Source of the DNA: Nitrospinales bacterium
GTDB lineage: Bacteria; Nitrospinota; Nitrospinia; Nitrospinales; VA-1
Assembly (NCBI GenBank): GCA_965223795.1
Contig: CBDCXL010000002.1
Coordinates: forward strand, 2,308,030-2,372,029
Direction: 5' to 3'
Length of the DNA stretch: 64,000 nt
The translations under genes were made by a program, and so were the position numbers. Under the pieces are notes generated by a model. It searched no databases. It worked only from the letters and a program-made list of their open reading frames with translations, and had not been told where the DNA came from. Shown one piece after another: positions 52,720-63,775 of the stretch. Numbering within the stretch: position 1 is the stretch's first letter; every line of letters starts with the position of its first letter.

Positions 52720-53919
52720 TCAACGCTTGTCCAAAGAGACGTAGGTCCTCATGTCCTCGGCCCGGATTCCGTTGTACTGCTGTGCAGGCCGGAAAAGAGG
52801 ACCACGGTTTTTTCTTTGCCTTGCGTTGTTGGCGACCCAGCCGAAATGGCGGGTGGACTGAAATATCGGTGTGTTGAGTATTTTGGGAATGCCGATCACC
52901 TTGTACAACAGACTGATCGGCAAGTCGGCATTGGGGGTTCGATCCTTTTCATTCAGCATGATTTCGCTGATGATGTCGTAAATTTCGAAATACCGGCTCA
53001 TCCCTCTTTTTTCAGCTAACGGCCTGGCAATGGACTCTGCAATTTTCACACGGGATTCCACTTTATTTTTATAGTGCTTCAATCGATGGCCGAAACCGGC
53101 AATGACTTCCTTTTGCTTCAGTTTGTTGAAGATGTAATCCCTGGCTCTTTGCGGAGTCTCAATTTCGTCGAAAAGATCCGCCACCCTTTCGTTGGCTCCG
53201 CCATGCAGCACTCCTTTCAGGGAGACGGCGCCTGCAAGGAGAGGTGAATAGGGATCGGTGCCCGCAGACTCCGCCACCAAAGAAGTGAACGTGGAACAGT
53301 TGAGAGTGTGATCCAGATAAAGTATCAGTGTGACGTTCAGAGCATGGGCGATTTCCTCTTCCGGTTCGATTCCGATCATGTGAAGAAAATTGGCGGCGTA
53401 GTTCAGGGAAGGATCCGGAGGGATGATGGATTTTCCATGAATCATCCTGTATCCATTCGCGACGATGACCGGAATTTTCGCTCCCATACGGACTCCCGAT
53501 TGCACGATCAGATCCGCCACACGGTCCGCTTCTTCCTTGGGTTTTTGCCATAAAGGATTGTGGTAATCCCGATCAAACATGCGGGCAAACGAAAGTGTGG
53601 TCAAAAGATAATCCATCATTTGAACGTCCGAAGGATAGGTCCGCATGTGAGTAAGGATTCTTTCATCCAGTGTTTCGTGCGCCTTGAGTTGGGTGGTGAA
53701 TTCACTGAGCTGACGTTTATCGGGCAACGCATCCTGCAAGAGGAGATACACGCTTTCTTCGAATAAACCTTTCACCAGGTCGAAAATGCTGTATCCCTTA
53801 TAAAGAAGAAGGGGATCCCCGTCAGCGCCCAAAGTGGTTAAAGAAATATCAGAGGAACAGACGGGAACGCCGTCCAATCCGGTGTCTACTGTGTTAATGA
53901 CTTCGCTGGTCTGGCTCAT
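52720..53919 (-). CDS. Citrate synthase-family protein (candidate 2-methylcitrate synthase, divergent)
   Basis: GLDGVPVCSSDISL...LLYKGYSIFDL, LHGGANE and GFGHR are present. The segment after GFGHR (LKHYKNKVESR) differs from the usual VYK..DPR. Confidence 0.8.
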   Translation of the reverse strand: MSQTSEVINTVDTGLDGVPVCSSDISLTTLGADGDPLLLYKGYSIFDLVKGLFEESVYLLLQDALPDKRQLSEFTTQLKAHETLDERILTHMRTYPSDVQMMDYLLTTLSFARMFDRDYHNPLWQKPKEEADRVADLIVQSGVRMGAKIPVIVANGYRMIHGKSIIPPDPSLNYAANFLHMIGIEPEEEIAHALNVTLILYLDHTLNCSTFTSLVAESAGTDPYSPLLAGAVSLKGVLHGGANERVADLFDEIETPQRARDYIFNKLKQKEVIAGFGHRLKHYKNKVESRVKIAESIARPLAEKRGMSRYFEIYDIISEIMLNEKDRTPNADLPISLLYKVIGIPKILNTPIFQSTRHFGWVANNARQRKNRGPLFRPAQQYNGIRAEDMRTYVSLDKR

Positions 53920-54751
53920 AGTTGAGAAATTTCTGGATGGCTTTCCGGTCCATCATCTTGTGCACGCAGTGTTCCTGGCTGCCATCCTGTTTCAGTTTTG
54001 AAAGCAGGGTTCCTGTTTGCCCTGCCAGATACCTGAATAAGGAAACCGGAAAAATAACGATATTGAAACCGAATTTCCAGAACTCACTGGCTTTGATGAA
54101 AGGCGTGTTGCCAAATTCGGTCATATTGGCGAGCAGGTAGCCCGGCACTTCTTTGCCGTAGCGTTCGAATTCCTCCCTGCTTTGCAGCGCCTCGGGAAAA
54201 ATCACATCCGCCCCTGCTTCTCGATAGAGGTTTCCGCGATAAATCGCTTCCTGCAGTTGATCGTCGCCATTCACGTTGTAGGCGCCTCGCGCATCGGTTC
54301 TCGCGATCACCATGAACTCCGGATCGAATTTTTCCCGGGCGGCACACGCCCGTTTTATCTTGGCGATCATTGCCTCTCTGGAAACGATTTCCTTACCAGC
54401 AAGGTGGCCGCAGCGTTTCGGAAATGTCTGGTCTTCAATGTGCAAAGCGGCAAATCCTGCTTGTATGTATTTTTCGATGGTCTCCTCCATGTTCTGGAAA
54501 CCCGTATCCGCATCGCAGATAACCGGGATGTCCACCGCCTTTACGATCCATCGTCCCAGGTAAACAAAATCCTCCAGTCCCAAGGTTCCGTCATCGGGAA
54601 CGGCCATGCTGCCGGAAAGCCCCGCTCCGGAAATATAGACTCCCGGAAATCCCGCCTCCTCGACCTGTCTGGCCACGAAGGGATTGAAGACGCCGGGAAA
54701 AACCAATCCCGGTTCATTTTCCAGCAATTGCCTGAGACGGTTGCCGGCCAT
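53894..54751 (-). CDS. prpB: 2-Methylisocitrate lyase (isocitrate lyase/PEP mutase superfamily)
   Basis: VICDADTGF, HIEDQTFPKRCGHLAGK (KRCGH motif) and MVIARTDA support the call. Confidence 0.85.
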   Translation of the reverse strand: MAGNRLRQLLENEPGLVFPGVFNPFVARQVEEAGFPGVYISGAGLSGSMAVPDDGTLGLEDFVYLGRWIVKAVDIPVICDADTGFQNMEETIEKYIQAGFAALHIEDQTFPKRCGHLAGKEIVSREAMIAKIKRACAAREKFDPEFMVIARTDARGAYNVNGDDQLQEAIYRGNLYREAGADVIFPEALQSREEFERYGKEVPGYLLANMTEFGNTPFIKASEFWKFGFNIVIFPVSLFRYLAGQTGTLLSKLKQDGSQEHCVHKMMDRKAIQKFLNYEPDQRSH

Positions 54752-62900: not shown

Positions 62901-63775
62901 AAGTGCTTTCTCTGATTCGTTCACCCGAGCCCACCGTCGAAGATAAAATACAAGGGTATGAACAAAAGCTGCGTGGAAAGGACAAATCGCGTTTCAGCGA
63001 CTTGGTGAGGCGCATCGATTTTAATGAAGATTACCGAGGGAAATTTGCACGTGAAATTTACGAGTTGATTCGTTTCCAAAATGCAAAATACGCCGAGGAA
63101 TTCGTCAACTTCGTTCAAAGGGTGTTCCTGATCGACACCGATCAGTTCCCCGCAAACCGGCTTGTCCTGACAAAGACCGTGGCGGATCATTTGTATGATG
63201 TCATGGCTTACAAAGACGAGTACCGGGTGGCCGATCTGTTGACCCGCCCTGAAGAAATTCAAAAAATACTGGATTCGTATGAAGACGGGGAGGTGGTCAA
63301 AATTCGATTCCTTTTGCGGCCTCCCATTCTCGAACATTTTCCCTGGATCAAAGACCTTAAATTTGTCAGAGATAAATTTGAAAAAGATGATAAATGGGAA
63401 GTGCCCGGATGGATGCTGACTATCCTCAGGCACTTTAAGTTTCTGCGTGGAACGGCATTCGATGTTTTGGCCTGGGGAAATGCAACCAGAATCGAAGAAA
63501 AAAAGGCGATCTCAATATACAGGCAAAGAATGGAAGGAATTCTCGCTCTATTGAATGACTCTAATTACGAGGCTGCCTGTGCTGCTGCCACTTATCCGAG
63601 CCTCGCCACGGGTTATGAAACGGTGAAGAAGAAGCACAGTCAGGTCGCTGAAGCGTTTTGGAGCAAAAAATGGACTGAGCTTGAAAACAGCGTTCAACTT
63701 CCTGGCGGGAATGATAAGAACTCCAATCGACACCGCCGATCGGAATCCTCGCTCTCCAGCGCGAATCCAGAATGA
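59912..63775 (+). CDS. Fused indolepyruvate:ferredoxin oxidoreductase-family protein (IorA-IorB-like 2-oxoacid:ferredoxin oxidoreductase, 1,287 aa)
   Basis: The N-terminal pattern RYLGTKGKIHLTGIQALVRLPFD...ISGYEGSPLGGLD is typical of single-polypeptide IOR-family proteins. The ferredoxin-type clusters are CENCGDCGLKAKC and CIQDFGCAKGECP. An IorB-like nucleotide-binding segment, IYSVGIGGWGLMT, is also present. Confidence 0.85.
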   Translation: MGKLPQNRLQNKKRGPAATTPNMFLQKNRFSLEEERYLGTKGKIHLTGIQALVRLPFDNLRLLQTIFPKKKFAYFISGYEGSPLGGLDINLRKMYSLLKEWNIIHLPGGNEEAGANMVWGSQLHRLFGSAKVDGVIGAWYGKGPGVRRISDVEDHMQMAGLDKFCAAYFMSGDDHTSKSSTTPHQTDYVHFANQVPTAYPGNIQEILDIGKKATLASMISGLAVNLKVETFVCDGSQEFILDPHEDLELAEKFTAFLEEHADYKRHFSPVLLKPRVLENEEELFYSKLPMLKEISKQFKFDIWKNRKLKSEFGIVATGKSYYDLMGALTQMGILEEEVEIYKPMFVWPPDTDSFREFIRGKKQIIVIEEKRSFFENHIKNEFFNDTNRPAVIGKYDENGNVLFRQNSNFDADYIVHVLGGILARKDQFKDRHIERIVDEKEKLNHVSIPEELTVKRPPAYCSGCQHRTALEISGHDNEKGTSESILVENKDLDGNRVQVEISPKHLMGIGIGCSTMAIIDSLASNRAIVVGPMASEGLLWMGASVFSFRTHADQGCGDGTYFHSARLNISFIRDAIEHLKVHYDIDDTHQTLLYVDNSVVAMTGGQRPIGQDDPETAISSIKKEGIENIALVAEYPEEFKHLKKKYGIETYHKSDTLRVKEEFSNKSGLSVIWYVQKCGIEKVRERKRHQELAPRMRVHVNTEVCENCGDCGLKAKCASVWQTDTEFGPKVRIHEYSCIQDFGCAKGECPSYVNIYTRSGNPYKKVDLDKLSLRDEDLPDPNREIHPDKIFKIYSVGIGGWGLMTAYEILARAASIEGMHVVKEDDTGLSQKGGEVRNSLKISYKNKKLIEGFKIEAGGADLYMCSDLIGAVNPENLKETSRKKTKAIINTEKIPTMPMIVGKDTFPDPEALKKIVTDHTRKGKNIFVNATEIVEGLFKDFKPTNLFLLGVAFQGIKDFPVKYAKNIENAIFLNGVDVEKNIQAFRYGRLYEFAPEKVLSLIRSPEPTVEDKIQGYEQKLRGKDKSRFSDLVRRIDFNEDYRGKFAREIYELIRFQNAKYAEEFVNFVQRVFLIDTDQFPANRLVLTKTVADHLYDVMAYKDEYRVADLLTRPEEIQKILDSYEDGEVVKIRFLLRPPILEHFPWIKDLKFVRDKFEKDDKWEVPGWMLTILRHFKFLRGTAFDVLAWGNATRIEEKKAISIYRQRMEGILALLNDSNYEAACAAATYPSLATGYETVKKKHSQVAEAFWSKKWTELENSVQLPGGNDKNSNRHRRSESSLSSANPE

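Follow-up and report, generated by a model that had tools for sequence, protein, structure and literature searches.

In a 64,000-nt stretch of Nitrospinales DNA (contig CBDCXL010000002.1 of assembly GCA_965223795.1, positions 2,308,030 to 2,372,029; hereafter the window), eight genes at the right-hand end bring together a single-chain 2-oxoacid:ferredoxin oxidoreductase of the IOR family, a thiolase, a long acyl-CoA dehydrogenase (ACAD), a methylcitrate-cycle set (PrpD, PrpB and a citrate-synthase homologue) and a B12-dependent mutase made of two chains. We read this cluster as a system for ferredoxin-linked catabolism of branched and short 2-oxoacids, joined to an isobutyryl-CoA mutase (IcmF) shunt, beta-oxidation and the methylcitrate cycle, and give this reading a probability of roughly 55%. 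The less specific claim, that the genes form one functionally coupled catabolic system for short and branched acyl-CoAs and for propionyl-CoA, we hold to be probable. The gene families, the cofactor and active-site motifs, the mutase type and the conserved linkage described below are established at the level of predicted proteins. Gene identities come from an open reading frame (ORF) map of the window and from hidden Markov model (HMM) scans with Pfam and NCBIfam, which bear out the identities and coordinates that an initial annotation, made from the sequence, had given for the eight genes. The cluster comprises the following features:

49662–51404, minus strand: mutase substrate-binding (TIM-barrel) chain, 580 aa (PF01642, E 2e-104)
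51391–52656, minus strand: B12-binding plus MeaB-like G-protein chain, 421 aa (PF02310 and PF03308)
52720–53919, minus strand: citrate-synthase family protein, probable 2-methylcitrate synthase (PrpC role), 399 aa (PF00285, E 1e-89)
53894–54751, minus strand: methylisocitrate lyase PrpB, 285 aa (TIGR02317, 296 bits against a cutoff of 354; PF13714; KRCGH motif)
54753–56129, minus strand: 2-methylcitrate dehydratase PrpD, 458 aa (PF03972 and PF19305, both MmgE/PrpD domains)
56130–56447, no strand: divergent intergenic region, 318 bp, between the PrpD and 650-aa ACAD genes
56448–58400, plus strand: long-form ACAD, 650 aa (three ACAD Pfam domains and a weak ACDH-11_C match)
58667–59851, plus strand: thiolase (acetyl-CoA C-acetyl/acyltransferase), about 394 aa (TIGR01930, 413 bits against a cutoff of 240; PF00108 and PF02803)
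59912–63775, plus strand: single-chain IOR-family 2-oxoacid:ferredoxin oxidoreductase, 1,287 aa, with C-terminal DUF6537 (NF009589, PF01558 (POR) and PF20169)
63782–64000, minus strand: C-terminal 72 codons of a nitrilase-superfamily (amidase-like) gene (translation equal to the C-terminus of protein P0174)

The initial annotation had seen no enoyl-CoA hydratase, 3-hydroxyacyl-CoA dehydrogenase, acyl-CoA synthetase PrpE or regulator in the window. We likewise find none within the 64 kb, and add the ninth, partial gene at its extreme end, which had been overlooked.

The association of these genes is conserved across the Nitrospinota. We mapped the eight window proteins, together with extra cluster proteins of Nitrospina gracilis and Nitromaritima, by tblastn onto 15 loci (L001–L013, L017 and L018), and found the linkage of IOR, thiolase, PrpD, PrpB, citrate synthase, split mutase and beta-oxidation module kept in 14 other Nitrospinota loci, on at least 13 contigs and in at least four gene orders. 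The order of the window, in which PrpD, PrpB, citrate synthase, the B12/MeaB chain and the mutase substrate chain run divergently from the 650-aa ACAD, thiolase and IOR, is identical in a complete Nitrospinaceae chromosome (L009) and in L017, and in L013 it is present as far as the contig extends. A second order is shared by N. gracilis, N. watsonii and L006; a third, in Nitromaritima, additionally holds an ACAS_N/AMP-binding (acyl/acetoacetyl-CoA-synthetase-like) gene and another thiolase; and a fourth occurs in two groundwater metagenome-assembled genomes (MAGs). Linkage that survives repeated rearrangement is a classical sign of functional coupling, and chance juxtaposition is thereby excluded. 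The initial annotation had suggested a gene-neighbourhood search and had allowed that the arrangement might be conserved nowhere else; the search finds the IOR gene co-linked with the mutase and PrpB/PrpD genes across Nitrospinota loci in spite of the rearrangements.

The syntenic L009 locus also extends the cluster beyond the end of the window. There the IOR gene is followed, in convergent orientation, by genes for a ∼295-aa protein, a 378-aa crotonase and a 456-aa ACAD, and then by the rest of a beta-oxidation module: a 3-hydroxybutyryl-CoA dehydrogenase (NF004474, E 2e-100), a ∼200-aa protein and a 478-aa SCP2-type thiolase (NF004982, E 4e-118). The module is seen in part downstream of IOR in L013, L010 and L012. 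Since the last 219 bp of the window (63782–64000, minus strand; 72 codons with no difference from the C-terminus of P0174, which has 294 aa and comes from the same contig) encode the first gene of this L009-type convergent module, the window runs on into it. In L009, counterparts of the hydratase and dehydrogenase that the initial annotation proposed to look for past position 64000 are found in that place: a crotonase and a 3-hydroxybutyryl-CoA dehydrogenase, accompanied by an additional ACAD and thiolase. The ∼200-aa proteins beside the SCP2-type thiolase (7502–8101 in L001, the N. gracilis locus, and 18136–18744 in L009) are orthologues with no Pfam match; a weak profile match to the DUF35-type “acyl dehydratase” chain 9myr_B (E 0.011), over a CPxC zinc-ribbon motif, gives a putative DUF35-like reading that fits the usual thiolase/DUF35 pairing. 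Directly beside the L009 cluster (20592–23741) lie genes for 4-hydroxyphenylpyruvate dioxygenase (HPPD), a fumarylacetoacetate-hydrolase (FAH)-family protein and a weakly homogentisate-dioxygenase (HGD)-like protein, a tyrosine-catabolic set that hints at wider amino-acid catabolism.

Both chains of the mutase have as their top PDB match the fused IcmF of Cupriavidus metallidurans (4xc6): the 580-aa chain with E 3e-97, covering the substrate barrel, and the 421-aa chain with E 1e-55, aligned to IcmF residues 43–399 (the B12 and G domains). The two genes overlap by 14 nt. Alignment with IcmF, methylmalonyl-CoA mutase (MCM) and 2-hydroxyisobutyryl-CoA mutase (HCM) gives the following diagnostic residues:

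First diagnostic position: this mutase RIFAG (Phe); IcmF RMFAG (Phe); MCM RQYAG (Tyr); HCM RQIAG (Ile)
Second diagnostic position: this mutase DDAQN (Gln); IcmF QGQN (Gln); MCM MVRN (Arg); HCM Gln
STxFD motif: this mutase STAFD; IcmF STAFD; HCM STDFD (Asp117)

Because the Phe/Gln/Ala signature is that of IcmF, the mutase is predicted to be of the isobutyryl-CoA-mutase type, an IcmF split after the G domain; the isobutyryl-CoA role assigned to it in the initial annotation is backed, as to enzyme type, by the Phe of RIFAG and the Gln of DDAQN. The 421-aa chain has the motifs DGHDAP (His-on; DGHDAS in IcmF), the P-loop GRGGSGKST and ETYGIGQ. Its G-domain NKxD reads NKSE, as in most aligned Nitrospinota orthologues (NKNE in Nitromaritima), and the substrate chain has QTDPCKE where IcmF has a conserved QxDILKE. 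The mutase shares with IcmF (4xc6) the B12 domain, the MeaB-like G domain, the substrate barrel, the Phe/Gln pair and DGHDA(S/P), but it is divided into chains of 421 and 580 aa instead of forming one polypeptide; this split is constant across the Nitrospinota loci, and the enzyme is in this sense not a “fused” IcmF. It also differs from the classical two-subunit IcmA/IcmB with its MeaI chaperone, in which the G protein is separate. A scan of 1.8 billion representative proteins returned fused IcmFs at 35–40% identity, as well as a few end-to-end, stand-alone B12+G proteins of 396–458 aa (P0213, P0227 and P0240; 36–38% identity), which may have been split independently or may be truncated ORFs.

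The methylcitrate set carries the folds and motifs of its families: PrpD has both MmgE/PrpD domains, PrpB the phosphoenolpyruvate-mutase/isocitrate-lyase fold with KRCGH, and the third protein the citrate-synthase fold with catalytic His/His/Asp (HGGANE, GFGHR and NAD in the translation). The top NCBIfam match of the citrate-synthase homologue is TIGR01800 (2-methylcitrate/citrate synthase II; 289 bits against a cutoff of 421), and in the related loci its gene always lies between those for PrpB and the mutase. PrpD scores 228 bits against a cutoff of 950 and 154 against 458. Scores this far under NCBIfam equivalog cut-offs mark divergent family members whose exact specificity is not guaranteed. 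The PrpD start at ATG 56129 has a GAGGAG ribosome-binding site upstream, orthologues are called at 458–460 aa, and with this start the 318 bp given for the divergent region by the initial annotation is correct; the longest ORF begins at 56279 and would shrink the gap to 168 bp.

On the opposite strand, the 650-aa ACAD has an N-terminal extension of ∼135 aa and an additional C-terminal helical domain. Its nearest PDB chains are ACADs of 590–610 aa (6ijc, 8png and FadE5 6kse), the catalytic Glu is retained (IYEGTNN aligned to IYEGANG of 6ijc, the YEG motif), and its orthologues in L009, L013 and L017 are 63–69% identical to it. The thiolase shows the catalytic Cys/His/Cys motifs VCGSG, GHPIGASG and CLGGG; its longest ORF opens at a TTG at 58625, and orthologues measure 389–395 aa.

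The IOR-family protein scores 815.6 bits on NF009589, for which the cutoff is 816, and both PF01558 and PF20169 are significant. In an alignment with 15 homologues from Nitrospinota, Tectimicrobiota, Acidobacteriota and Rokubacteria, it contains the thiamine pyrophosphate (TPP) motif GDGT(Y/F)FHS (here GDGTYFHS) and 11 Cys residues invariant across the 16 sequences (461, 464, 513, 678, 705, 708, 711, 717, 738, 744 and 749), those from 705 to 749 making up a ferredoxin-like block. Its TPP motif and Cys ligands are those of the single-chain IORs of NF009589/PRK13030, and so is the succession of domains, which leads from an IorA-like part through ferredoxin-like Cys clusters and an IorB/POR gamma-like part to DUF6537; but it is ∼100–160 aa longer, scores right at the family cutoff and has inserts specific to the Nitrospinota clade, notably residues 468–505 after CSGCQH. 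Domain order, TPP motif and Cys ligands are also common to the archaeal two-subunit IorAB and to VorABCD, whereas the window protein is a single chain. A PDB sequence search found no solved relative. Close relatives, at 66–77% identity, are all from Nitrospinota (N. gracilis, N. watsonii, Ca. Nitromaritima and many MAGs), and the next tier, from Tectimicrobiota, Bryobacteraceae and Rokubacteria, stands at only ∼35%. In two Bryobacteraceae genomes the fused IOR adjoins a class-IV aminotransferase (Aminotran_4, the family of the branched-chain aminotransferases) along with genes for a 4HBT thioesterase, crotonase and thiolase, and in a Tectimicrobiota genome it adjoins an acyl-CoA-synthetase-like gene of the ACAS_N/AMP-binding type. 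The context of the fused IOR is thus variable outside the Nitrospinota, and its link with IcmF and PrpBCD appears to be specific to that phylum. In some bacteria, genetic evidence ties fused members of the family to the oxidation of branched-chain or phenyl-pyruvate substrates, and in some Proteobacteria it ties fused IorAB-type proteins to phenylalanine use. A literature search on the function of fused IOR/DUF6537 proteins, the GapMind catabolism paper included, yielded nothing usable.

From this gene content we infer the substrates, direction of flux, co-expression and physiological role of the cluster as follows. Branched-chain 2-oxoacids from transamination of valine and isoleucine, and possibly 2-oxobutyrate too, would be converted by the IOR enzyme, with its TPP and Fe–S centers, to acyl-CoA, CO2 and reduced ferredoxin. 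Isobutyryl-CoA would then be rearranged to n-butyryl-CoA by the two-chain B12 mutase, which is of IcmF type by its signature residues. Butyryl-CoA and 2-methylbutyryl-CoA would be oxidized by the ACADs and passed to the crotonase, the 3-hydroxyacyl-CoA dehydrogenase and the two thiolases, giving acetyl-CoA and, from isoleucine, propionyl-CoA; the SCP2-type thiolase/DUF35 pair would be a natural candidate for acting on 2-methylacetoacetyl-CoA. Propionyl-CoA would be taken to pyruvate and succinate by the citrate-synthase homologue, PrpD, PrpB and an aconitase encoded elsewhere (no AcnB or AcnD/PrpF is present in the window or the examined loci). The initial annotation had derived propionyl-CoA from 2-oxobutyrate, which may contribute; the isoleucine route would connect PrpBCD with the beta-oxidation genes no less well. 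Where CO2 is fixed through the reductive tricarboxylic acid (rTCA) cycle and ferredoxin reduction must otherwise be paid for, an enzyme that reduces ferredoxin would be a good fit in place of a dehydrogenase linked to NAD.

Such a pathway would share with canonical valine and isoleucine catabolism the logic of ACAD, hydratase, dehydrogenase, thiolase and propionyl-CoA disposal. It would differ in that a single-chain ferredoxin-linked 2-oxoacid:ferredoxin oxidoreductase (OFOR) replaces the NAD-linked branched-chain 2-oxoacid dehydrogenase complex, in that a B12 mutase leads to n-butyryl-CoA where the canonical valine route passes through methacrylyl-CoA and methylmalonate semialdehyde, and in that methylcitrate, not methylmalonyl-CoA, is the destination of propionyl-CoA. 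The prpBCDE operon of Salmonella and E. coli likewise has adjacent and co-oriented genes for PrpD, PrpB and a citrate-synthase-II-type enzyme. Unlike that operon, however, the window has no PrpE, PrpR or AcnD/PrpF, its proteins score under the equivalog cut-offs, and its trio lies in one transcription unit with the IcmF-type mutase, divergent from ACAD, thiolase and IOR.

We count in favor of 2-oxoacid catabolism the aminotransferase link in Bryobacteraceae, the tyrosine genes of L009, the synthetase of Nitromaritima, the 14-nt inverted repeat described below and the electron-transfer flavoprotein (ETF) genes reported in the N. gracilis genome paper (PMC3578206). Several observations weigh against it. 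The same paper describes Nitrospina isolates as obligate chemolithoautotrophs that are inhibited by organics and have no recognized importers for organic substrates (PMC3578206). The cluster holds no aminotransferase, transporter or regulator, and no genes of the leucine branch. Most equivalog-level NCBIfam scores, including those of all the Prp proteins and the ACAD, are under their curated cut-offs, and no feature examined in the IOR protein separates branched-chain from aryl or straight-chain 2-oxoacids. The IcmF/PrpBCD context is absent around the fused IOR in three other phyla or lineages, including the Tectimicrobiota genome and a JGI soil-type contig, and the amidase-like gene is given a place neither by this reading nor by any of the alternatives to it.

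Among these alternatives, the cluster might instead serve catabolism of short-chain fatty acids (propionate, butyrate, isobutyrate or acetoacetate) activated by an acyl-CoA synthetase, with the IOR enzyme peripheral, acting on pyruvate or 2-oxobutyrate, and not the point of entry. Propionate use through prpBCD has been proposed for N. gracilis by Mueller et al. (PMC8026999), an ACAS_N/AMP-binding synthetase lies inside the Nitromaritima cluster with a similar one beside the Tectimicrobiota fused IOR, and pyruvate, the product of PrpB, is itself a 2-oxoacid. The synthetase is missing, however, from most versions of the cluster, including those of the window, L009, N. gracilis and N. watsonii, and no gene is linked more constantly than IOR, which as a rule stands at the head of an operon that includes the thiolase; Nitrospina moreover has dedicated pyruvate and 2-oxoglutarate oxidoreductases, according to its genome paper (PMC3578206). 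We consider this alternative unlikely, with a small but real chance of being right. The family name and the NF009589 match would equally allow a true aryl-pyruvate (indole- or phenyl-pyruvate) enzyme of aromatic amino-acid catabolism, with the beta-oxidation genes processing aryl-acyl-CoA, and the HPPD, FAH-family and HGD-like genes adjoining the L009 cluster point the same way. Yet none of the examined loci has paa-type ring-CoA genes, 4-hydroxyphenylpyruvate is already handled by HPPD without CoA, and an isobutyryl-CoA mutase with a methylcitrate trio makes no sense for aryl-acetyl-CoA, so that we regard an aryl-pyruvate enzyme as improbable.

In an rTCA autotroph rich in reduced ferredoxin, the pathway might also run in the anabolic direction, from acetyl-CoA through butyryl-CoA to isobutyryl-CoA, followed by reductive carboxylation of this (and of propionyl-CoA) to 2-oxoisovalerate and 2-oxobutyrate as precursors of amino acids; in a variant, the ACAD and ETF would carry out a ferredoxin-reducing bifurcation. 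OFORs, thiolase, 3-hydroxyacyl-CoA dehydrogenase, crotonase and IcmF are all reversible, and Nitrospina runs the rTCA cycle and needs reduced ferredoxin. For the variant, Luecker et al. (PMC3578206) speculate on just such a role of ETF and ACAD. PrpD, PrpB and methylcitrate synthase are nevertheless hallmarks of catabolism, the last of them catalyzing what is in effect an irreversible step; the long-form ACAD looks like a respiratory enzyme of the FadE type and not like Bcd; and the cluster is patchy in Nitrospinota (two cultured strains lack prpBCD according to PMC8026999) and horizontally moved here, unlike core biosynthesis. An anabolic role is therefore decidedly improbable. That unrelated genes met by chance on a genomic island could be argued from the position of the cluster after a tRNA-Lys gene and insertion-sequence remnants, with a clear compositional shift, but the linkage that several independent rearrangements have left in place in 14 other loci, the match of the cluster to local GC in the other loci and the closeness of all eight proteins to the same two contigs, L017 and L018, leave this a negligible chance; synteny has already refuted it. 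A dimethylsulfoniopropionate/methylmercaptopropionate or acrylate route, considered from the long ACAD and weak acryloyl-CoA reductase matches, was dropped, as it left the mutase and IOR unexplained.

In addition to its conserved linkage elsewhere, the cluster shows signs of transfer in this genome. Two features lie to its left:

48056–48131, plus strand: tRNA-Lys(CTT), probable integration site and left island boundary (ARAGORN; Rfam tRNA, 71.7 bits)
48680–49640, minus strand: frameshifted IS481/IS3-type (rve) transposase remnants (family assigned from helix-turn-helix and integrase-core stretches read in the peptides, and not by an HMM)

The ∼1.5 kb that follow the tRNA gene (48132–49661) have a GC content of 0.43, transposase fragments and a T-rich tract near 48520–48550, and are a probable island scar. 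The cluster itself has GC 0.508 and third-position GC (GC3) of 0.58–0.63, as against GC 0.579 and GC3 0.75–0.84 in the 48 kb upstream, where housekeeping genes are found (serA-like, histidine kinases, an Na/H exchanger, three flagellins and a peroxiredoxin). In every other locus examined the GC of the cluster equals that of its flanks. For all eight window proteins the closest matches, at 67–83% identity, are on L017 (GC 0.42) and L018 (GC 0.46), two contigs of low GC. Given the GC shift, the remnants and this closeness, the simplest reading of the sequence would be block transfer from a lower-GC Nitrospinota lineage into the tRNA-Lys site, followed by partial amelioration. A search for an att site in the form of a repeated tRNA-Lys end gave nothing convincing within 47900–64000, and the far end of the island lies past the window. 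The initial annotation had suspected an island, which the tRNA-Lys gene, the remnants and the GC shift support; the chance juxtaposition it had coupled to that suspicion gives way to a conserved, mobile and coherent module. In N. gracilis (L001) the cluster is flanked by a phage-integrase-family gene and by a large eCIS_core/endonuclease protein (2043–3182 and 21721–23855), which again suggests a mobile context. The three flagellin genes of the upstream region are in tandem, each 285 aa and all on the minus strand (33611–34468, 35229–36086 and 36709–37566), the first two being 89% identical; cultured Nitrospina is described as non-motile in PMC5029188.

A repeat search of the 318-bp region between the two operons found a perfect 14-nt inverted repeat, TTATTATAAATCCA at 56155–56168 and TGGATTTATAATAA at 56337–56350. 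Within each copy there is a TATAAT oriented to that copy's own operon, and TGGATTTATAAT faces its own operon in each copy. The repeat is kept in part in L017. A simple sigma-70 scan of the region found no full promoter. The copies may be twin −10-type promoter (or operator) elements, which would be compatible with co-regulation of both operons. A search for riboswitches and other RNAs with Rfam in 47000–64000 found the tRNA alone.

The amidase-like gene that enters the window at its right edge belongs to a family that sequence HMMs barely detect, with no Pfam or PDB sequence match. An AlphaFold2 model of P0174, built from 29 homologues, has a pLDDT of 94.8, and the PDB entries that Foldseek ranks highest for it (E near 1e-7, TM near 0.5) are all nitrilase-superfamily amidases: formamidase AmiF, a short-chain aliphatic amidase of Nesterenkonia and Nit2. 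Glu39, Lys104 and Cys149 are invariant in the family. P0174 is accordingly modeled as a nitrilase-superfamily fold (alpha-beta-beta-alpha sandwich) with a putative Glu–Lys–Cys triad. Sequence HMMs identified neither the 305-aa nor the 199-aa protein of the cluster; the former was placed by this structure prediction and the latter by the weak DUF35-type profile match. Within Nitrospinota the family of P0174 is always linked to the IOR cluster; homologues outside the phylum come from some Bacillales alone.

Nitrospinota are the main nitrite oxidizers of the ocean and are treated as obligate chemolithoautotrophs. The N. gracilis genome paper reports no genes for the use of external organic carbon and mentions ETF and ACAD solely for a speculative ferredoxin-reducing bifurcation (PMC3578206). 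Mueller 2020 (PMC8026999) and Ngugi 2015 (PMC5029188) note prpBCD in N. gracilis and Nitromaritima and see in it a route that may serve propionate use or anaplerosis. The mutase and the IOR-family gene go unmentioned in the searched passages of the three papers. The initial annotation did not know the gene combination as an operon; the enzyme families are known and the Nitrospina prpBCD was already published, and it is the coupling as a whole that is new. We now report that a single-chain IOR/DUF6537 protein, a split IcmF, two beta-oxidation sets and PrpBCD are coupled in one conserved supercluster, in a phylum considered obligately autotrophic. Also new are the mobility of the cluster between lineages and the very divergent nitrilase-superfamily member tied to it.

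A bolder interpretation, which we think rather doubtful, is that the cluster is a mobile, “ferredoxin-harvesting” organotrophy module. Oxidation by IOR of 2-oxoacids that are short and branched or derive from amino acids would give low-potential reduced ferredoxin for the rTCA cycle, sparing costly reverse electron flow from nitrite; carbon would pass via the split IcmF, beta-oxidation and the methylcitrate cycle to acetyl-CoA, pyruvate and succinate; and the amidase would release ammonium. If this were true, it would mean real mixotrophy in supposedly obligate autotrophs, spread by transfer between lineages. More generally, a conserved block of at least 14 genes exchanged between lineages is a candidate basis for mixotrophy, if the ferredoxin-reducing entry enzyme holds; an alternative candidate role is the recycling of amino acids and protein in starvation or in low-oxygen zones. 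The cluster also offers a clean context for assigning functions to the single-chain IOR/DUF6537 enzymes, which are widespread and poorly characterized, to the split IcmF and to the divergent branch of the nitrilase superfamily.

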